Source: Escherichia coli (GTDB lineage: Bacteria; Pseudomonadota; Gammaproteobacteria; Enterobacterales; Enterobacteriaceae). Taken from it: DNA of 64,000 nt. Numbering within the stretch: the first letter of the stretch is position 1; each line of letters opens with the position of its first letter. Position numbers and translations under genes: made by a program. The notes beneath the pieces are model-generated. The model had not been told where the DNA came from and did no database searches. It saw nothing but the letters and a program-made list of their open reading frames with translations. Below are positions 6,229 through 61,381 of this stretch, one piece after another. The stretch lies in NCBI RefSeq assembly GCF_044647545.1, contig NZ_CP172818.1, one strand, 5' to 3'.

Positions 6229-6810
6229 ATGTGATGAGCCGTTCATGATACAGGAGTAGTAAAGGGCATATTTTACCAATGTTAAGGCGACTTTCCGTTT
6301 TATTGCGAGTCGCCTTTCCTGATTATAAATCTTATTGTTTACCTAATCATTTTCCTTTGCATAATGCGCCTGGGATTAATGGCGGGTGCTTTTAGGAATG
6401 AAAGAAAATGCAAGCAATAATATAATAATGGCCTAATTTCTTTGAACATCATTAAGCATATCATCATCGTCTATTTGCCAGAATCCGTCGACTTATAATC
6501 GCCAGAACGGCATATCAGGACGGTGCTGCGAACGCTGTGGCCCAAAACGTTCCAGTAAACTGTGTAGATGTTCGTAGATTTCCGAGCCATAATCGAAAAG
6601 GCGCGGATGTCTATTAAGGCATCCGGCTAATCTGTAAGCAATAACAACGGTTTATGCGGTGCGCGTTTTTCACCCTTGTGCCAGATTATTATATTGGCAA
6701 TTGCCTGCTGTTCGAGCCCGCAAGTGAAGAGATATTACCTTGATCTCATTTGTTTTTTGTTGTCTACTCTGAGAACGAACAAGGACATCCCCCATGAATA
6801 AACTCCCCGC

Positions 6811-7791
6811 TCACCTTTCGCGCCAAAACTGCAAAATTGCTTCTACAAACCTGTCAGAAATAATCCCTCGACGGGCTGCCGCGCTGAAATGACTGCTTCG
6901 CAGTGCCGTCGTCCAGTTCTCCGGTGACCGGTACGCTGAACCGTAATATCCCGTGCTTAAATCGTCCGGATCTTCATCAGGCGCGTTCGTCAGTCCTCTT
7001 GCACCTTGTTGCTGGAAGTCGACGAAAATAATATTGGCTAGAACATTATTTTGATAATTGCCATAAATAGCTTCATACGCATGAGGGAAATTTTCTTTCC
7101 AGTACCAGGTGGTATCGCCGCAAAACCACGGCGCGTCAGTAATTTTATTAAGCTGAGAATGGTATTGTTTTAGATCCCTACGAAAGGCGTCAACCATATG
7201 ATTAAAGTGTTGAGGGTGTGACGCGTAGTCACTGGTCATTAAGTCAAATTCGCCTTGCATCCAGCATACGCCGAGGAATTTGTTCTGCGGATTTTTTGCC
7301 AGTGCGGCTCGCGTTCTGCTGACTAAATCCTGGTATAGCGGAGTATCCGTTCCCCAACGACAAGCATCATGGCTGGCTCCGTGCCGTTCTGAATATGTCC
7401 CTTCGCTGCCCGCGGTAAAAGCCGATCCGCCACGGCAACACGGAACGATGAGAACCCCTGCATTATCAGGAATAAAGGGCAGTAATTTCCGTGCTATATG
7501 TAGTGCCTGGCCAACGGTGCCGTACTGTGTTTGATGATTCGTTGCCAGAGGATGGTGATAACCCTGCATATCCTGAACATCGTGTGGGCAGTGAGTCAGT
7601 GGAATAATGTCGTTAAAGTGACATGACGGGCCTCCGGGATGTGTATGCGCAAATCTCGCTAATTGTTTAATTCTGGGATGAGGCGCATCTTCCTTGTCCG
7701 GTAATGGTAGTCCTTCGCCATACGCCATGGCATTAGACTGACCAGCAACGGTAAGAACATAGTAATAATCGGGCGATATTATTGCGTTCAT
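6811..7791 (-). CDS. nanS: 9-O-acetyl-N-acetylneuraminate esterase
   Basis: ORF 6811-7818; ATG at 7789-7791 gives MNAIISPDYYYVLTVAGQSNA... (326 aa). Confidence 0.85.
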   Translation of the reverse strand: MNAIISPDYYYVLTVAGQSNAMAYGEGLPLPDKEDAPHPRIKQLARFAHTHPGGPSCHFNDIIPLTHCPHDVQDMQGYHHPLATNHQTQYGTVGQALHIARKLLPFIPDNAGVLIVPCCRGGSAFTAGSEGTYSERHGASHDACRWGTDTPLYQDLVSRTRAALAKNPQNKFLGVCWMQGEFDLMTSDYASHPQHFNHMVDAFRRDLKQYHSQLNKITDAPWFCGDTTWYWKENFPHAYEAIYGNYQNNVLANIIFVDFQQQGARGLTNAPDEDPDDLSTGYYGSAYRSPENWTTALRSSHFSAAARRGIISDRFVEAILQFWRER

Positions 7792-7855
7792 ATAATTTTC
7801 GCGTAATACAAATGACAAATTGATAGCAAGGCCCCTTTACCGGGGCCCTGAAGCG

Positions 7856-8962
7856 TTAGTTTTGTACTGTGACTTTATTATCCTTCACAGAAATTAAAAC
7901 TGAATCCGTCACCGCTTTGCCGCCTGCAGTTTCACCGCCAATAATTAATAAACTATTATTCCAGGGCAATGATACTCCGTAGGCCCGACCTTGCGATAAT
8001 TCGCCCGATTTATCCCATTTCCCGTTATGCCAAAGATGAATATCAGCGCTATATGATTTTTTCAGGCCTTCATGCGCATAGTTCTTACCGTTCTGGTAAT
8101 TTTCTCGTGAACCTTTGAATCCGGCCCCTCCGGCAAATATAAGTGAGTCATTGCTCATGCCTGCAAAACCGCCAGCGACGCCATCTGGTGATGCGACGGG
8201 AGCAAGCTTATTCCATTTTAAATTATTACCGGTGAAATCAAGTTCAAATACGGCATCCGTTCGCAATCCTGGTTTGGCTTCGCCATTAATAAGCCAGGTT
8301 TTATCACCTTTATTCACAACCGCCGCACCAGCCGTTCCGTACCAGGGAGATTCGCCAGCGTAACTCCATTGCTGTGTAGAGGGATCAAAAGACAACAGAA
8401 ACTTATTGAAGAAATAATCTTCTGCTTTTTTGTCAAAATAGTGGGCGTTGATTTTATCTATAGTGGTTGAATCTTTTCCAGCTTCGTTGAGATCTTCAAA
8501 ATAGCCATTGAAGATATTCTGGTTAACACCGCCAGTAACATAAGCCTTGCCGTTGTGTACAAAAGTCACATGGCCCGCCATGCCCATCGGCGCGTGCGAC
8601 ATCAATTTAACCCAGCTATTGGTTTTGGGGTTGTATTTGTGTACGTCATTAAATACCTGAGTCAAGCCCTCGCTGTTTTTGCCAATGCCGCCAAACACAT
8701 ACAGATTACCATCAATAAATGCAGAGGTTGCTTGATCTCTCGGTCCACCAGGGAATGCAGCTAACGCTGTCCATTTTTTATCTTTGGCCTGTGTATCCAG
8801 CTTGTACCATGCTGTACCTGCGCTACCTAAACCAATGTAGACAGTGTCGTTATCAATTGCTCCGGTACCACTTTTAAATGGCACAGGAGTTTCCGGTAAT
8901 ACAGACGCGTTTGCGGCAAATGAAGCCATTATGATAGCAAGCGCCGTTATTGTTTTATTCAT
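7856..8962 (-). CDS. nanM: N-acetylneuraminate mutarotase (Kelch-repeat periplasmic protein)
   Basis: ORF 7856-9070; ATG at 8960-8962 (MNKTITALAIIMASFAANA...) with a signal peptide and GGAGA RBS. Confidence 0.85.
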   Translation of the reverse strand: MNKTITALAIIMASFAANASVLPETPVPFKSGTGAIDNDTVYIGLGSAGTAWYKLDTQAKDKKWTALAAFPGGPRDQATSAFIDGNLYVFGGIGKNSEGLTQVFNDVHKYNPKTNSWVKLMSHAPMGMAGHVTFVHNGKAYVTGGVNQNIFNGYFEDLNEAGKDSTTIDKINAHYFDKKAEDYFFNKFLLSFDPSTQQWSYAGESPWYGTAGAAVVNKGDKTWLINGEAKPGLRTDAVFELDFTGNNLKWNKLAPVASPDGVAGGFAGMSNDSLIFAGGAGFKGSRENYQNGKNYAHEGLKKSYSADIHLWHNGKWDKSGELSQGRAYGVSLPWNNSLLIIGGETAGGKAVTDSVLISVKDNKVTVQN

Positions 8963-8981
8963 TGTGACTGTCTCCTGTCTA

Positions 8982-9698
8982 CTACAGTTTAAATGATACA
9001 CCAATGCGATAACTGTTTTCCGATAAATTATCTCTGCCGTTGTAAACACCCTGACGGTCAAGGTAGTCATATTCTATGTATGGCGTAATATCGGGCGTCA
9101 TATGGTATTGTAGAACAAATGCATTTTCCGTCGCCCATTTCTTATGGTTTGCATAGCGATAATCGTTCTGTTTGCTGTATAGCGTCGTTTGCCATGCGAA
9201 GGTGAAATCACTATTAATATGGTAAGTGACATATCCATCCCAACGATGAACGTTATCACGAGACATATCACCGGATAAGTCTTGTTGTCGGTAAGCTTTC
9301 CAGTCGTAACGATAGCGAATGCCAAAATTAAGATCTTTTGTCGCGTCCCAGGACAGTTTTACGTAGGGTCCGTAGCGGGTGCCGTTGCTGCTAAAATGCG
9401 TTAACATTCCCGGGCGCACCGTCCATTGATCATCAAGTTTAATCGCGTAATTAACTTCAACCTGAACATCATTGAGTGCGGCATTTTCCTTTTTATTATC
9501 ATGAATGGTATTCCAGGTATTACTTTCCATGCTTGCCCACCATCCATTTTGCCATCCCTCACTGACTTTGAGTCGAGTCTCATAGGCATGGCTTCCGCTA
9601 CGATATCCACCACGTACGTCCAGTGTCGCAGCCTGAGAAATTAATGGTGACGAAAAGCACAGTAATAATACGCCAGAAAGTATTTTAGCCTTTTTCAT
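8982..9698 (-). CDS. nanC: N-acetylneuraminic acid outer-membrane channel (KdgM family)
   Basis: ATG at 9696-9698 gives MKKAKILSGVLLLCFSSPLISQA... (238 aa); beta-barrel C-terminal ...IGVSFKL. Confidence 0.9.
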   Translation of the reverse strand: MKKAKILSGVLLLCFSSPLISQAATLDVRGGYRSGSHAYETRLKVSEGWQNGWWASMESNTWNTIHDNKKENAALNDVQVEVNYAIKLDDQWTVRPGMLTHFSSNGTRYGPYVKLSWDATKDLNFGIRYRYDWKAYRQQDLSGDMSRDNVHRWDGYVTYHINSDFTFAWQTTLYSKQNDYRYANHKKWATENAFVLQYHMTPDITPYIEYDYLDRQGVYNGRDNLSENSYRIGVSFKL

Positions 9699-49515: not shown

Positions 49516-49602
49516 TGGTGCGAGGGGGGGGACTTGAACCCCCACGTCCGTAAGGACACTAACACCTGAAGCTAGCGCGTCTACCAATTCCGCCACCTTC
49601 GC
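49516..49602 (-). tRNA. leuV: tRNA-Leu (anticodon CAG)
   Basis: 87-nt complement reads GCGAAGGTGGCGGAATTGGTAGACGCGCTAGCTTCAGGTG...CACCA. Confidence 0.9.
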
Positions 49603-49636
49603 ACAGTCATCTTACTTTTTTTGATATCGCCTCGTT

Positions 49637-49723
49637 TGGTGCGAGGGGGGGGACTTGAACCCCCACGTCCGTAAGAACACTAACACCTGAAGCTAGCGCG
49701 TCTACCAATTCCGCCACCTTCGC
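49637..49723 (-). tRNA. leuP: tRNA-Leu (anticodon CAG), one-base variant in the variable arm
   Basis: Same 87-nt tRNA as leuV except gtaagaacac for gtaaggacac; 34-bp spacer from leuV. Confidence 0.9.
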
Positions 49724-49751
49724 CCAGTGCGAGCAATATCAACGTGGTTTT

Positions 49752-49838
49752 TGGTGCGAGGGGGGGGACTTGAACCCCCACGTCCGTAAGGACACTAACA
49801 CCTGAAGCTAGCGCGTCTACCAATTCCGCCACCTTCGC
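49752..49838 (-). tRNA. leuQ: tRNA-Leu (anticodon CAG)
   Basis: Third 87-nt copy; 28-bp spacer from leuP; copy names assigned by K-12 map order. Confidence 0.9.
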
Positions 49839-55848: not shown

Positions 55849-56922
55849 GTGGGGCAGCGAATACCTGTAACGCTTGGTAATATTGCGCCGTTGTCGCTAA
55901 GGCCGTTCCAGCCTGGACGAATAGCTCTGGTGTGCGAAGGCGGCGGGCAGCGTGGAATTTTCACAGCTGGCGTGCTGGATGAGTTTATGCGCGCGCAGTT
56001 TAATCCTTTCGATCTTTATCTCGGCACATCTGCCGGGGCGCAGAACCTCTCGGCGTATATCTGCAATCAGCCCGGTTACGCGCGCAAAGTCATCATGCGC
56101 TATACCACAAAACGCGAATTTTTCGATCCATTGCGCTTTGTCCGTGGAGGAAATCTTATCGATCTCGACTGGCTGGTGGAGGCCACCGCAAGCCAGATGC
56201 CGTTGCAAATGGACACCGCAGCGCGGCTATTTGACAGCGGCAAATCGTTTTATATGTGCGCCTGTCGTCAGGATGACTACGCGCCGAATTACTTTTTACC
56301 AACCAAACAAAACTGGCTGGATGTGATTCGCGCCTCCAGTGCAATACCTGGCTTTTATCGTAGCGGAGTGTCGCTGGAAGGCATTAATTACCTGGATGGC
56401 GGGATCAGTGATGCGATCCCGGTTAAAGAGGCGGCAAGGCAGGGCGCAAAAACGTTGGTCGTTATCCGCACTGTGCCGTCACAAATGTACTATACGCCGC
56501 AGTGGTTCAAACGCATGGAACGCTGGCTGGGTGACAGTAGCCTGCAGCCGCTGGTCAATCTGGTGCAGCATCATGAAACCAGCTATCGTGAGATTCAGCA
56601 ATTTATTGAGAAACCACCGGGCCAGTTGAGGATATTCGAAATTTATCCGCCGAAGCCATTACATAGTATCGCGCTCGGCAGTCGGATTCCGGCGCTGCGT
56701 GAAGACTATAAACTTGGGCGTTTATGCGGGCGTTATTTTCTGGCAACGGTCGGTAAGTTATTGACTGAAAAAGCGCCGCTGAGCCGCCATCTGGTGCCGG
56801 TGGTGACGCCGGAGTCGATCGTTATTCCGCCTGCACCCGTCGCCAACGATACGCTGGTTACCGAGGTGATAGACGCTCCACAGGCGAACGACCCGACATT
56901 TAACAATGAGGATTTGGCTTGA
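55849..56922 (+). CDS. yjjU: Patatin-like phospholipase
   Basis: ORF 55804-56922; GTG at 55849 with RBS AGGAAGG gives 357 aa; GxSxG motif GTSAG and N-terminal GGGQRG. Confidence 0.8.
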   Translation: MGQRIPVTLGNIAPLSLRPFQPGRIALVCEGGGQRGIFTAGVLDEFMRAQFNPFDLYLGTSAGAQNLSAYICNQPGYARKVIMRYTTKREFFDPLRFVRGGNLIDLDWLVEATASQMPLQMDTAARLFDSGKSFYMCACRQDDYAPNYFLPTKQNWLDVIRASSAIPGFYRSGVSLEGINYLDGGISDAIPVKEAARQGAKTLVVIRTVPSQMYYTPQWFKRMERWLGDSSLQPLVNLVQHHETSYREIQQFIEKPPGQLRIFEIYPPKPLHSIALGSRIPALREDYKLGRLCGRYFLATVGKLLTEKAPLSRHLVPVVTPESIVIPPAPVANDTLVTEVIDAPQANDPTFNNEDLA

Positions 56923-57803
56923 TTTGCCGTTTTATCGACACCCACTGCCATTTTGATTTCCCGCCGTTTAGTGGCGATGAAGAGGCCAGCCTGCAACGCG
57001 CGGCACAAGCGGGCGTAGGCAAGATCATTGTTCCGGCCACCGAGGCGGCAAATTTTGCCCGCGTGCAGGCGTTAGCGGAAAATTATCAACCGCTGTATGC
57101 CGCTTTAGGGTTGCATCCGGGGATGTTGGAAAAACATAGCGATGTGTCTCTTGATCAGTTACAGCAGGCGTTGGGAAGACGTCCGACGAAGGTGGTGGCG
57201 GTGGGGGAGATCGGCCTGGATCTCTTTGGTGACGATCCGCAATTTGAGAGGCAGCAGTGGTTGCTTGATGAACAACTGAAACTGGCGAAACGCTACGATC
57301 TGCCGGTGATCCTTCATTCACGGCGCACGCACGACAAACTGGCGATGCATCTTAAACGCCAAAATTTGCCACGCACTGGTGTGGTTCATGGTTTTTCTGG
57401 CAGCCTGCAACAGGCCGAACGGTTTGTGCAGCTGGGCTACAAAATTGGCGTAGGCGGTACTATCACCTATCCACGCGCCAGTAAAACCCGCGATGTCATC
57501 GCAAAGCTGCCGCTGGCATCGATGTTGCTGGAGACCGACGCACCAGATATGCCGCTCAATGGTTTTCAGGGGCAGCCTAATCGCCCTGAACAGGCCGCCC
57601 GTGTGTTTGCCGTGCTGTGCGAGTTACGCCCGGAACCCGCGGATGAGATTGCCGAAGTGTTGCTTAATAACACGTATGCGGTGTTTAACGTTCGTGGAGC
57701 CGAGCCGAAGCGCACGCACGCAGCACAACGAGCCCCTAGTCTGCCCTTCGTAAGCCGGATAAGGCGTTCACACCGCATCCGGCAGTCGACGCACAATGCC
57801 TGA
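56919..57803 (+). CDS. yjjV: TatD-family metal-dependent hydrolase/DNase with an apparent C-terminal extension into REP repeats
   Basis: TTG start overlapping the yjjU stop; MICRFIDTHCHFDFPPF...; TatD-like body ends near 57692, but the frame stays open to TGA at 57801-57803. Confidence 0.7.
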   Translation: MICRFIDTHCHFDFPPFSGDEEASLQRAAQAGVGKIIVPATEAANFARVQALAENYQPLYAALGLHPGMLEKHSDVSLDQLQQALGRRPTKVVAVGEIGLDLFGDDPQFERQQWLLDEQLKLAKRYDLPVILHSRRTHDKLAMHLKRQNLPRTGVVHGFSGSLQQAERFVQLGYKIGVGGTITYPRASKTRDVIAKLPLASMLLETDAPDMPLNGFQGQPNRPEQAARVFAVLCELRPEPADEIAEVLLNNTYAVFNVRGAEPKRTHAAQRAPSLPFVSRIRRSHRIRQSTHNA

Positions 57804-57953
57804 TGCGACGCTGACGCGTCTTATCATGCCTACAAGTCTGTGCCGAACCGTAGGCCGGATAAGGCGTTCACGCCGCATCCGGCAGTTGGCGCACAATGCC
57901 TGATGCGACGCTGACGCGTCTTATCATGCCTACAGGTCTGTGCCGAACCGTAG
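57754..57953. repeat. Tandem duplication (2 x 100 bp) of a REP-containing BIME unit
   Basis: Two near-identical 100-bp units starting at 57754 and 57854. Confidence 0.8.
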
Positions 57954-57957
57954 GCTG

Positions 57958-58821
57958 TCACAAATACAGCGCCGGAAATATCAACCGGCTCACCCCGTGC
58001 TCCCGTAACGCATCAGCCAATTGCTCAACGTCTTCCGGCGTGGCGCTCGCCCAGCTTTGCGCCTCGCCATACACGCCGTGGGCATGAAACGCGTTCAGGC
58101 GTACCGGAACATCGCCAAGTCCCTTGATAAACGCCGCCAGCTCATCGATATGCTGCAAATAATCCACGTGGCCTGGGATTACCAGCAAACGCAGTTCTGC
58201 CAGTTTGCCGCGCTCGGCAAGCAGACTAATGCTGCGCTTGATCTGCTGATTATCGCGTCCGGTTAGCTGTTGATGGCACGCGCCACCCCACGCTTTGAGG
58301 TCGAGCATCGCGCCGTCGCATACCGGGAGTAATTTTTCCCAGCCGGTTTCGCTCAACATGCCGTTACTGTCCACCAGACAGGTGAGATGACACAGTTGTG
58401 GATCATTTTTGATAGCAGTAAACAGCGCCACCACAAACGGCAACTGGGTCGTGGCTTCACCGCCGCTTACCGTTATCCCTTCAATAAACAGCACCGCTTT
58501 GCGGACGTGACTAAGCACCTCGTCCACGTTCATGGATTGCGCCATCGGCGTAGCGTGTTGTGGACACATCTTCAGGCAGGTATCACACTGCTCGCAGACG
58601 GCTGCGTTCCACACTACTTTGCTGTTAACAATCTGCAACGCCTGATGCGGACACTGTGGCACGCACTCCCCGCAATCATTACAGCGCCCCATTGTCCACG
58701 GATTGTGACAGTTTTTGCAGCGCAGATTACAGCCCTGTAAAAACAGAGCCAGACGACTGCCTGGCCCGTCAACGCAGGAGAAGGGGATAATCTTACTGAC
58801 TAAAGCGCATCTGCTGTTCAT
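57958..58821 (-). CDS. yjjW: Glycyl-radical enzyme activating enzyme (radical SAM, PflA-like)
   Basis: 287-aa ORF with Cys-rich motifs (..[12 protein letters not shown].., ..[12 protein letters not shown]..). Confidence 0.85.
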
Positions 58822-60343
58822 GGCTTATCACGCGCGACTGGCGTTCCAGAATACGAGTGTTGCGTGCGGCTTCTTCTCCCAGCCAGGTGGTATTGGTACG
58901 TGAACCTTCGGCACGATATTTTTCTAAATCCGACAAACGCACCATATAACCGGTAACGCGAACCAGATCGTTACCGCTGACATTGGCGGTAAATTCACGC
59001 ATTCCGGCTTTAAAGGCACCGAGGCAAAGCTGTACCAGCGCCTGCGGATTACGTTTGATGGTTTCGTCGAGCGTCAAAATGTCGCTGATGCCGGAATAAT
59101 AATAAGCATGATGCGGGGCGACAGTTTGCAGATGGGTGATCGGATCTGGCTCATCGCCATACGGCAAACGCGCGCCCGGCGTGGTGCCGATATCGGAACT
59201 TATCCCCGACTGTGCGTGTAGCATGGCGCGATTTTGCCAGCCATATTTCACGGGGGTATTGGCGACAAACTCCGCCAGTTGCGCGCTGATGCGATAACCC
59301 ACTTCATTTGCAGCGGCTTCTTTACCGTAACGTGCGGCAATTCCTTCTTTCTCACACAACAAGTTAACCGCTTCTGCCAGTCCGTACATGCCAAACATTG
59401 GCACAAAACGTTCAGGGTTAATCAGCCCTTCTTTCACCAGGAAGCTATTCTCAAAGAAGTGTGATTGTTGATAGAGGAATTCACACCGCGCATCGATGAT
59501 GGCGATTTGCTGCTGGCAGTAGTGCGGTAGAGTGCGCGTAAAGAAATCATCCAGCGATTCACTGCGCTCGGCAATGGCTTTCAGGTTAAGGCGTACCAGC
59601 GTGCTGCCACCACCCGCCAGCGGCAGTGAGTTGTAACAGCTCACAATCCCGTAGCCCCCTTTTGTGAAAATTTTATCATGCACGGGACCGTTGGCGATGT
59701 GCGGTTTGCTACATTCACAGATGTTTTTCGCCACTTCCAGCAGCAGGTCATCAGGGGTGATTTCAGGATCGTAGATAAAAGTCAGGTTCGGTGAAACCTG
59801 CTTCAGCTCTGAATCTGCCCGTAAAATCGCACGGGTAATGGGCGAATCAGACGGGCCAATATTGGCGTGCATAAAGGCATCTGGCAGGGTTCTATCGAGG
59901 TAACGCCAGAAACGTTTTATTCGAATATCGATCTCGTTTTGTGTTAGAATTCTAACATACGGTTGCAACAACGCATCCAGTTGCCCCAGGTAGACCGGCA
60001 TCGATGTGACCGAAGGAACGTGGTGGTAAAGAATGGTCAGCAGAGAGAGTGCGTCATCAAGATCTTTTGCGCCTTCCAGCTCCAGCCATTCGGAACCGTT
60101 GGCCAAAAAACGGGCGTAATCGGGTAAGACATAGCGCGGTTTATACGGCGCATGACCTTCAAACATATCGCAGATTACACCTTCATCCAGCGCGCGGCGG
60201 GCTTCGGCAGGAAGCTGTGGGTAAGGCAGATTGTTTTCTGCTTCCAGCGCCAGAAAATGGCGCTTCTGCTCCGGGCTAAGTACCGGACTGGTGACAATTT
60301 GCTGGCAACGTTGTTGCAGTGCATTTTCATGAGAAGTGGGCAT
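58793..60343 (-). CDS. yjjI: Uncharacterised glycine-radical-enzyme-like protein (DUF3029)
   Basis: ORF 58793-60472; ATG at 60341-60343 ([17 protein letters not shown]...) with RBS AAGGAA gives 516 aa; 3' end overlaps yjjW. Confidence 0.8.
59663..59678. promoter_or_regulatory. Candidate DeoR operator OE (degenerate)
   Basis: tgtgaaaattttatca, 12/16 match to TGTTAGAATTCTAACA, 278 bp upstream of O1. Confidence 0.4.
59941..59956. promoter_or_regulatory. DeoR operator O1 (deoP1), inside the yjjI coding region
   Basis: Perfect 16-bp palindrome TGTTAGAATTCTAACA. Confidence 0.75.
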
Positions 60344-60541
60344 CTTCTGTTCCTTTTTATGCCGAAGGTGATGCGCCATTGTAAGAAGTTTCGTGATGTT
60401 CACTTTGATCCTGATGCGTTTGCCACCACTGACGCATTCATTTGAAAGTGAATTATTTGAACCAGATCGCATTACAGTAATGCAATTTTGTAAGTAGATT
60501 TCCTTAATTGTGATGTATATCGAAGTGTGTTGCGGAGTCGA

Positions 60542-60557
60542 TGTTAGAATACTAACA
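60542..60557. promoter_or_regulatory. DeoR operator O2 (deoP2)
   Basis: TGTTAGAATACTAACA, 45 bp upstream of the deoC ATG and 601 bp from O1; TGTGA-containing CRP/CytR-type motifs lie just upstream (60440-60540). Confidence 0.75.
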
Positions 60558-60601
60558 AACTCGCAAGGTGAATTTTATTGGCGACAAGCCAGGAGAATGA
60601 A

Positions 60602-61381
60602 ATGACTGATCTGAAAGCAAGCAGCCTGCGTGCACTGAAATTGATGGACCTGACCACCCTGAATGACGACGATACCGACGAGAAAGTGATCGCTCTGTGT
60701 CATCAGGCCAAAACTCCGGTCGGTAATACCGCCGCTATCTGTATCTATCCTCGCTTTATCCCGATTGCTCGCAAAACGCTGAAAGAGCAGGGCACCCCGG
60801 AAATCCGTATCGCTACGGTAACTAACTTCCCACACGGTAACGACGACATCGAAATCGCGCTGGCAGAAACCCGTGCGGCAATCGCCTACGGTGCCGATGA
60901 AGTTGATGTGGTGTTCCCGTACCGTGCACTGATGGCGGGTAACGAGCAGGTTGGTTTTGATCTGGTGAAAGCCTGTAAAGAGGCTTGCGCAGCAGCGAAT
61001 GTACTGCTGAAAGTGATCATCGAAACCGGCGAACTGAAAGACGAAGCGCTGATCCGCAAAGCGTCTGAAATATCCATTAAAGCGGGTGCTGATTTCATCA
61101 AAACCTCTACCGGTAAAGTAGCAGTGAACGCGACGCCGGAAAGCGCGCGCATCATGATGGAAGTGATCCGTGATATGGGCGTAGAGAAAACCGTTGGTTT
61201 CAAACCGGCGGGCGGCGTGCGTACTGCGGAAGATGCGCAGAAATATCTCGCGATTGCAGATGAACTGTTCGGTGCTGACTGGGCTGATGCGCGTCACTAC
61301 CGCTTTGGTGCTTCCAGCCTGCTGGCAAGCCTGCTGAAAGCGCTGGGCCACGGCGACGGTAAGAGCGCCAGCAGCTACTAA
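60602..61381 (+). CDS. deoC: Deoxyribose-phosphate aldolase
   Basis: ORF 60578-61381; ATG at 60602 with RBS AGGAGA gives [29 protein letters not shown]... (259 aa). Confidence 0.95.

Follow-up and report, generated by a model that had tools for sequence, protein, structure and literature searches.

Organization of the yjjI-yjjW locus

The yjjI and yjjW genes of Escherichia coli, located next to the deo operon, were analyzed in a 64,000-nt stretch of contig NZ_CP172818.1 from the RefSeq assembly GCF_044647545.1; this entire stretch is referred to below as the window. The initial annotation, made from the sequence alone, had described the two genes as an orphan pair without an assigned substrate, composed of a glycyl radical enzyme and an overlapping radical S-adenosylmethionine (SAM) activase. 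Family scores, the RefSeq annotation and the open reading frame (ORF) coordinates agree with this description (Table 1), and no substrate is named in Pfam, NCBIfam, RefSeq or open-access full-text papers mentioning yjjI. Translational coupling across the 29-nt overlap of the two genes appears likely, and analysis of flanking sequences revealed comparable overlaps in Enterobacterales, Rhodobacterales and other groups.

The region 57700-60700 is 100% identical to several complete E. coli genomes, in which RefSeq gives the same annotation (yjjV, yjjW, yjjI, deoCAB), and at least 80% of it is held by 5422 of 5426 complete genomes of this species. The gene order is shared with strain K-12 (b4378 to b4384, the pair corresponding to b4379/b4380). 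The codons of yjjI in the window and in K-12 differ by 42 synonymous and 5 nonsynonymous changes, which points to purifying selection over the whole gene. A pseudogene was also considered and was rejected because of conservation.

It should be noted that the identity of the gene pair and the operators described below are already present in databases and in older literature (the operators since the 1980s). New in this analysis are the conservation of synonymous sites within two of the operators, O1 and OE, and a functional lead based on nucleoside-related gene context.

Table 1. Positions of genes, protein motifs and regulatory sites of the yjjI-yjjW locus and the adjacent deo control region in the window
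Feature	Position	Strand	Remarks
yjjW coding sequence	57958-58821	-	287 aa; radical-SAM activase of YjjI; TIGR04041
YjjW ferredoxin-like insert	58564-58683	-	two CX2CX2CX3C motifs (auxiliary Fe-S clusters); Fer4 Pfam matches
YjjW radical-SAM cluster motif CNLRCKNC (CX3CX2C)	58708-58731	-	residues 31-38; sequence motif
yjjI 3' end/yjjW start overlap	58793-58821	-	29 nt; ORF coordinates
yjjI coding sequence	58793-60343	-	516 aa; YjjI-family glycyl radical enzyme; ORF and RefSeq annotation
Glycyl radical motif RVTGY	58946-58960	-	YjjI residues 462-466, G465 at 58949-58951; aligns to RVSGY (G734) of pyruvate formate-lyase (PFL)
Cys loop VSCYN	59630-59644	-	YjjI residues 234-238, C236 at 59636-59638; predicted thiyl-radical cysteine
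DeoR operator OE TGTGAAAATTTTATCA	59663-59678		12/16 matches; yjjI codons 222-227
DeoR operator O1 TGTTAGAATTCTAACA	59942-59957		perfect 16-bp palindrome, 16/16; yjjI codons 129-134 (Y-V-R-I-L-T)
Putative extended -10 of deoP1	59945-59950	+	TAGAAT after TGT, inside O1; hexamer assigned from sequence
Predicted yjjI -10 hexamer TACAAT	60378-60383	-	FNR site then at about -41.5, start near 60370
Predicted FNR site of the yjjI promoter CGCATCAGGATCAA	60405-60418	-	only the half GGATCAAA is conserved
CRP site 2 of deoP2 TTTGAACCAGATCGCA	60456-60471		~93 bp from either start (deoP2, predicted yjjI), geometry deduced
CRP site 1 of deoP2 TGTGATGTATATCGAA	60509-60524		same as the enterotoxigenic E. coli (ETEC) CRP ChIP-seq motif for yjjI/deoC (PMC4287617); conserved
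DeoR operator O2 TGTTAGAATACTAACA	60542-60557		15/16 matches; at deoP2, yjjI-deoC intergenic region
deoC	60602-61381	+	first gene of deoCABD; divergent from yjjI

Family membership, catalytic residues and predicted fold of YjjI

YjjI matched the Pfam (2025 copy) family PF11230 "Glycyl radical enzyme YjjI-like" at 2.7e-220 (732 bits, cutoff 23) and the NCBIfam (June 2026) model TIGR04040 with 788 bits (cutoff 498), and is a full-length member of this family. Its conservation was examined in two alignments, one of 22 homologues spanning identities down to 33% and one of 16 distant members. The radical glycine motif, whose absence near the C-terminus would have spoken against the initial annotation, is present as RVTGY, with R462 and G465 invariant in both alignments. 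The same holds for S235, C236 and N238 of the Cys loop, and C236 and G465 remain unchanged down to 33% identity. E62, R70, Y71, H159, N186, R251, E305, H376, Q378, D384 and R392 are also invariant among the 22 homologues, and the distant members share this invariant core.

When used as a single sequence, YjjI of E. coli identified no relative among PDB sequences and gave no PFL-like or Gly_radical match in Pfam. The family profile produced weak, consistent PDB matches (E 0.002-0.03) to PFL, YbiW, 4-hydroxyphenylacetate decarboxylase (HPAD) and the class III ribonucleotide reductase (RNR) NrdD. A further match, 8iof, was labelled "Benzylsuccinate synthase alpha subunit" in one search and N-methyl-cis-4-hydroxy-D-proline dehydratase in another. 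In the profile alignment, S235-C236 pairs with C418-C419 of PFL, and RVTGY with its RVSGY motif (G734). Profile-to-sequence comparison with PflB gave a probability of 74% and covered both catalytic loops (YjjI 89-481 versus PflB 247-751). Comparison with NrdD by hhalign gave 89% (YjjI 17-362 versus NrdD 120-532), with the glycine domain outside the match.

Structure prediction, which had been proposed as a means of locating the catalytic loops, yielded an AlphaFold2 model of high confidence (pLDDT 91.5, pTM 0.91). The model adopts the ten-stranded alpha/beta barrel of glycyl radical enzymes and RNRs, with class III RNR as its nearest relative, and the loops carrying G465 and C236 were located by motif and alignment. 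The 2024 structures of YbiW and PflD were also among the structural matches. With 516 aa, YjjI is shorter than every glycyl radical enzyme or RNR chain among the top structural matches (637-869 residues). The protein has the features used here as tests for the superfamily: an RVxG[FWY] motif near the C-terminus, a cysteine on the opposing loop, the barrel, and an adjacent radical-SAM activase gene.

The protein was compared with class III RNR, PFL and a range of PFL-like enzymes (YbiW, PflD, CutC, glycerol dehydratase, HypD, IslA, HPAD and benzylsuccinate synthase). In NrdD, as in YjjI, the radical glycine lies close to the C-terminal end and only one cysteine is present on the loop, and class III RNR is likewise an anaerobically induced module of two genes encoding an enzyme and its activase. 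However, YjjI is ~200 residues shorter than NrdD, and their identity is 13-18%. The N-terminal ATP-cone/allosteric region of NrdD is missing from YjjI (there is no ATP-cone Pfam match, and the hhalign match starts at NrdD residue 120), as is the C-terminal Cys4 zinc site or ribbon that precedes the glycine loop. The bottom-face cysteine of E. coli NrdD (C175) falls at the invariant R70-Y71 of YjjI in what is an approximate alignment, with no conserved cysteine nearby. PFL and YjjI align by family profile in the Cys loop and in the RV(S/T)GY glycine loop, and their activases belong to one branch, but YjjI lacks roughly the first 250 PFL residues and has Ser-Cys (S235-C236) in place of the Cys-Cys dyad (C418-C419). 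In glycyl radical 1,2-eliminases and dehydratases, a C-x-E motif supplies a general-base glutamate two residues after the cysteine. This motif, found in glycerol dehydratase, CutC, HypD and IslA, is replaced in YjjI by C236-Y-N238, with N238 invariant.

YjjI is therefore a minimal, barrel-only glycyl radical enzyme, with a barrel nearest to class III RNR and a PFL-type glycine loop and activase. Assignment as a canonical RNR, PFL or C-x-E eliminase was considered in each case and rejected on the basis of the motifs. Since YjjI is devoid of the catalytic extras of these enzymes, it should catalyze a reaction of its own and should belong under no characterized reaction class.

The YjjW activase

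YjjW matched TIGR04041 with 395 bits (cutoff 250). The next-best models were those of activases of the PFL activating enzyme (PFL-AE) type, all below their own cutoffs, and these scored higher than the NrdG models (45-63 bits versus cutoffs of 126-131). The activase of NrdD is of the NrdG type, whereas YjjW is of the PFL-AE type with an insert accommodating two ferredoxin-like clusters.

Of 40 loci from genomes, 36 have yjjW adjoining yjjI, as do 69 of 77 loci from metagenomes. In two Pasteurellaceae-like contigs (L104 and L107), unrelated genes on the opposite strand directly follow yjjI, and no yjjW was detected; loss of the activase gene, or its transfer to another site, is conceivable in some strains.

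DeoR operators and the deoP1 promoter inside yjjI

The window was searched for DeoR operators with the 16-bp palindrome TGTTAGAA/TTCTAACA. Only two sites with at most three mismatches were found in the 64 kb, O1 and O2; shuffled sequence contained 0.2 such sites on average, and two matches were reached in 3 of 100 shuffles. The perfect palindrome O1 is indeed present within yjjI, as the initial annotation had proposed, although its coordinates had been placed one base too low (59941-59956 instead of 59942-59957). Three tandem tRNA-Leu(CAG) genes (49516-49838, minus strand) contained weak look-alikes of the operator.

OE has four mismatches, and with three such sites in the window it is not significant by itself. 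The case for OE is therefore based on position and conservation, rather than on match score. The deo operon has two tandem promoters 599 bp apart, with an operator at each (PMC3334521), and a third site, OE, is situated ~300 bp upstream of O1, with DeoR forming loops between all three sites (PMC8053113; PMC4217526). The K-12 spacings (OE-O1 279 bp, O1-O2 599 bp, OE-O2 878 bp) fit the published position, and the site at 59663-59678, listed earlier as a degenerate candidate inside yjjI, is thus the classical OE. A distance of 878 bp between operators was reportedly described by Dandanell et al. in 1987. A placement of OE 878 bp upstream of O1 was rejected, as nothing operator-like lies near 59064, and K-12 coordinates identify 878 bp as the OE-O2 distance. 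The locus is therefore the known DeoR looping system, with the operator sequences and the 279-, 599- and 878-bp spacings as in K-12. One extra G in the yjjI leader (60349), relative to K-12, makes the O1-O2 distance 600 bp in the window instead of 599 bp. It also extends OE-O2 from 878 to 879 bp, a small shift in helical phase for the DeoR loop.

The conservation of the operators within the reading frame was assessed in 23 Enterobacteriaceae loci. Third-codon positions agreed with those of E. coli at a rate of 100% within O1 and 98% within OE; outside the operators, in the same part of yjjI, the background was 53%. The O1 16-mer is identical in 18 of these loci, carries a one-base change in four, and has two changes in Edwardsiella. 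In Proteus, where deo is not adjacent to yjjI, the sequence PYVGKLT replaces PYVRILT and the operator is absent. The conservation of synonymous sites, together with the absence of the operator in Proteus, indicates that O1 and OE are under selection at the DNA level within the reading frame.

O1 is read in yjjI as TAT GTT AGA ATT CTA ACA, and the palindrome thus forces the rare codons AGA and CTA into the gene. AGA is used for only 2 of the 33 arginine codons of yjjI and CTA for 3 of the 56 leucine codons, and O1 holds one of each. The locus is, moreover, a neat natural instance of an overlapping gene whose codons are dictated by operators and a promoter, with AGA and CTA fixed family-wide.

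A putative extended -10 element, TGT-TAGAAT, occurs within both O1 and O2, and DeoR would accordingly be expected to occlude the -10 of both P1 and P2. With O1, OE and the deoP1 -10 all inside the yjjI frame, deo regulation and yjjI are physically interleaved, as previously suggested. Since the deoP1 -10 lies in O1, and O1 in the yjjI frame, transcripts from deoP1 would be antisense to yjjI over codons 1 to ~127 and would also traverse its promoter.

The presence of O1, OE and P1 inside yjjI, where they constrain its codons, is not described in the papers on DeoR looping that were found (PMC4217526, PMC3334521, PMC8053113). The arrangement resembles that of lac O2 inside lacZ, where an auxiliary looping operator is embedded in a reading frame and two constraints act at once. 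However, the operators and the whole deoP1 promoter are situated here in the divergent neighbour gene, on the antisense strand, and not in the regulated operon.

A generic promoter scan gave one sigma-70-like match in this region, its only one, at 59670-59697 on the minus strand (TCGCCA, a 16-nt spacer and a TG-preceded TAAAAT). This match overlaps OE in the sense direction of yjjI and may represent either an internal promoter or a coincidence.

Promoter and expression of yjjI

The same scan recovered neither the known deo promoters nor the yjjI promoter, and phylogenetic footprinting of 12 Enterobacteriaceae intergenic regions was used instead. O2, both CRP sites, the CytR region and GGATCAAA were conserved. 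The hexamer TACAAT, placed 21-22 nt past GGATCAAA, is unchanged in 8 regions, whereas the other four have one-base variants (TAGAAT, TACACT). The half-site and the hexamer fit a class II FNR promoter with a predicted start at ~60370.

Published data place yjjI among the operons directly activated by FNR under anaerobic conditions, with a chromatin immunoprecipitation (ChIP) peak at 4,615,181 in older K-12 coordinates (PMC3688515). Upon coordinate conversion (K-12 deoC = 4,617,323), this peak maps to ~60437 in the window. Both yjjI and yjjW are marked as FNR-activated in another study (PMC2634741), and in anaerobic Yersinia intermedia yjjI was up 4.3-fold and yjjW 2.1-fold (PMC3792023). The pair is therefore expressed; a lack of expression under any condition had been named as an observation that would have spoken against the initial proposal.

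The yjjI promoter is positioned between O1 and O2, inside the DeoR loop, and RNA polymerase leaving it must therefore pass O1 and OE. Together with the first 680 bp of the gene, it lies in the OE-O1-O2 looping region. Judging from the positions of the sites, one CRP/CytR array might serve both the deoP2 and the yjjI promoter. In ETEC, CRP ChIP-seq revealed TGTGATGTATATCGAA as the site between the genes, together with another peak that lies within yjjI close to P1 (PMC4287617). The intragenic motif of that study, CGTACCGTCGGTCACA, maps to 60004-60019 near deoP1, where the window differs from K-12 at 60014 and 60017.

Gene neighbourhoods of yjjI-yjjW

The genomic context of the pair, a comparison suggested in the initial annotation as a route to candidate substrates, was analyzed in two scans. 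In the first, one genome per species was searched with the family alignment as the query and the flanks of the identified loci were analyzed. In the second, metagenome contigs were searched with an alignment of distant clades, and the ORFs flanking 81 distant loci were clustered without prior labels. The results showed that yjjW is the universal partner of yjjI, while the other neighbours vary by lineage, and that nucleoside uptake or catabolism is a recurrent context.

Members of Enterobacteriaceae, together with Hafnia and Edwardsiella, have deoCABD in divergent orientation to yjjI, and several genera also carry nupC in convergent orientation after yjjW. Two Pasteurellaceae-like contigs (L103, L110) show the order yjjI-yjjW-nupC-deoD; a third (L111) contains nupC, and its 2.7-kb flank stops short of any deoD. 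In Orbaceae (Gilliamella, Orbus), yjjI-yjjW is the last element of a co-directional nucleoside cluster in the order deoD, nucleoside:H+ symporter, 5'-nucleotidase, cdd, pyrimidine-nucleoside phosphorylase and another 5'-nucleotidase; in Orbus, 54 bp separate yjjI from the preceding gene. A gammaproteobacterial metagenome-assembled genome (MAG) contains deoB, an amidohydrolase gene, a gene of the nucleoside-phosphorylase family and a PfkB kinase gene around the pair. A YjjI homologue ~36% identical to that of E. coli is encoded between genes for a nucleoside hydrolase, a phosphorylase and a Bmp-type ATP-binding cassette (ABC) importer, with a second phosphorylase gene and cdd downstream.

Among the 81 distant loci, the five most widely recurring neighbour families after YjjW are all encoded by nucleoside genes, with identities confirmed by Pfam: ABC ATPase (32 loci), Bmp substrate-binding protein (22), ABC permeases (21), IU nucleoside hydrolase (10) and nucleoside phosphorylase (10). 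Cytidine deaminase (cdd; 6 loci), phosphopentomutase (DeoB; 5) and DeoC (4) rank lower, among unrelated families, and an adenosine deaminase and amidohydrolases are also present. When lineages with usable flanks were defined as 70%-identity clusters, Bmp or a nucleoside catabolic enzyme was found in 11 of 23. The pair is often placed within the transporter operon, one example being Udp-Bmp-YjjI-YjjW-ATPase-permease-permease-DeoC-Add-DeoB. According to NCBI sources, the clade of this example belongs to Lachnospiraceae/Eubacteriales, and related loci carry Cdd instead of Add. The YjjI family is common in gut Lachnospiraceae.

A LysR regulator gene recurs beside yjjI in Vibrionaceae and Shewanella, where deo genes are absent. 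In Shewanella (L057/L058), genes for an ExaC-type acetaldehyde dehydrogenase (961 bits, cutoff 900) and an AcuI acrylyl-CoA reductase are located just upstream of yjjI, and in a gammaproteobacterial MAG (L069) a more distant aldehyde dehydrogenase and a LysR regulator adjoin the pair. These dehydrogenases may hint at an aldehyde product, for example the acetaldehyde that DeoC makes. In one metagenomic lineage (L127), a gene for a class II (B12-dependent) RNR with an ATP-cone (6591-9017) is upstream of and co-directional with yjjI-yjjW-Bmp-ABC, and ends ~980 bp before yjjI.

Proposed role in anaerobic nucleoside metabolism

The yjjI and yjjW genes constitute a real, expressed two-gene glycyl radical system. 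By analogy with the enzyme family, YjjW, equipped with one SAM cluster and two ferredoxin-type clusters, would abstract hydrogen from G465 of YjjI; C236 would in turn be converted by the glycyl radical to a thiyl radical, which attacks the substrate. FNR switches yjjI on under anaerobic conditions. Based on gene context, the substrate would most likely be a nucleoside or its pentose moiety, and we consider it reasonably probable that YjjI acts in anaerobic nucleoside metabolism. The position of yjjI next to deo is probably functional rather than accidental, because the nucleoside context recurs across phyla, especially as an insertion inside nucleoside-transporter operons. Neither chance nor shared synteny readily accounts for such recurrence.

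A more specific version of this proposal is put forward tentatively, as a possibility with the odds somewhat against it: YjjI would be an RNR-like radical enzyme acting on a nucleoside or pentose(-phosphate), not on nucleotides, and in E. coli it would share DeoR/CytR/CRP control with deo besides its activation by FNR. The RNR-like barrel suggests, speculatively, an attack on the ribosyl 3'-H followed by chemistry at the 2'-position. One possibility is 2'-deoxygenation or dehydration, which would channel ribosyl units to DeoC and acetaldehyde or produce deoxynucleosides. The missing reductase cysteines argue against canonical reduction and might still allow redox-neutral dehydration or cleavage, or the use of another reductant, each of these being individually unlikely.

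Several observations weigh against a nucleoside-related role. No nucleoside context is seen in 12 of the 23 distant lineages or in an archaeal contig, and in the genome scan deo and nucleoside genes were absent from the yjjI flanks in Morganellaceae, most Vibrionaceae and Rhodobacterales. No metabolic partner is common to Morganellaceae, Vibrionaceae, Shewanella, Rhodobacterales, and the archaeal and several metagenomic contigs. The proteobacterial synteny (Enterobacterales, Pasteurellales, Orbales) could in part be inherited from one ancestor, and gene context does not discriminate between a nucleoside, a pentose phosphate and a base as the substrate. Judging from the geometry of the sites, DeoR, CytR or CRP might plausibly act on yjjI itself. 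Searches of the open-access literature found no biochemical or genetic evidence on the substrate of YjjI/DUF3029 and no glycyl radical enzyme of nucleoside catabolism, and a co-expression study proposed a role of yjjI in nitrogen metabolism (PMC3228777).

The most serious competing explanation, which we regard as unlikely although by no means negligible, is that adjacency to deo is merely positional. The deo control region would have expanded over a neighbour gene whose product works on a central anaerobic metabolite unrelated to nucleosides, such as a keto acid or a metabolite linked with nitrate/nitrite respiration. This would agree with the activase being the only universal partner of yjjI, with the unrelated neighbours in about half of the lineages, with the co-expression of yjjI and narG-type genes (PMC3228777), and with the location of Shewanella yjjI after the acetaldehyde dehydrogenase and acrylyl-CoA reductase genes. 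However, yjjI-yjjW is repeatedly associated with nucleoside transport and catabolism in different phyla, also by insertion within a nucleoside ABC transporter operon, a pattern hard to explain by chance or shared ancestry alone.

Far less credible is a cryptic RNR, i.e. a stripped-down class III enzyme supplying deoxynucleoside triphosphates. The closest structural neighbours of YjjI are class III RNRs, some homologues carry precomputed NRDD Pfam matches, and one locus adjoins a class II RNR gene, but YjjI is devoid of the ATP-cone, the profile puts the invariant R70-Y71 at the essential bottom-face Cys175 of NrdD, C440 is the sole cysteine after residue 330 (there is no C-terminal Cys4 zinc site), and the activase resembles PFL-AE and not NrdG. 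Moreover, E. coli needs nrdDG for strictly anaerobic growth, and YjjI therefore does not substitute for NrdD. Least probable of all is that yjjI-yjjW is a decaying or silent remnant, kept for the deo operators and P1 inside it. In its favour, the papers found mention no phenotype, the operators contain frozen synonymous sites, and a few truncated alleles exist. Yet this explanation is already largely refuted by the near-universal presence of the stretch in E. coli (5422/5426 genomes), the gene-wide excess of synonymous over nonsynonymous differences (42 versus 5), the invariance of the catalytic residues across phyla, the documented FNR-dependent expression, and the retention of the pair in many taxa with no deo operon nearby.

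The proposed role in nucleoside metabolism has the advantage that embedding of the pair in nucleoside operons provides a concrete and cheap list of candidate substrates, namely nucleosides and the phosphates of ribose and deoxyribose, in the presence or absence of formate. Regulation responsive to nucleosides is a further prediction. If the proposal is correct, the classical deo pathway would gain an oxygen-sensitive radical step, and YjjI would represent an evolutionary intermediate between RNRs and PFL-like enzymes. The functions of YbiW and PflD have recently been assigned, and YjjI would then be the last glycyl radical enzyme of E. coli without a reaction.

Sequence variation downstream of yjjW

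The yjjV gene (56919-57803) encodes 294 aa in the window, compared to 259 aa in K-12. The reading frame is longer because the K-12 stop codon, located inside a repetitive extragenic palindromic (REP) element, is replaced in the window, and ~35 additional codons run into REP-like sequence. The yjjV-yjjW gap is longer in K-12 than in the window, and the best-matching genomes diverge from the window at 57700-57736. Within 57740-57955, after yjjV, there are two tandem REP/BIME-like units of ~100 bp each.

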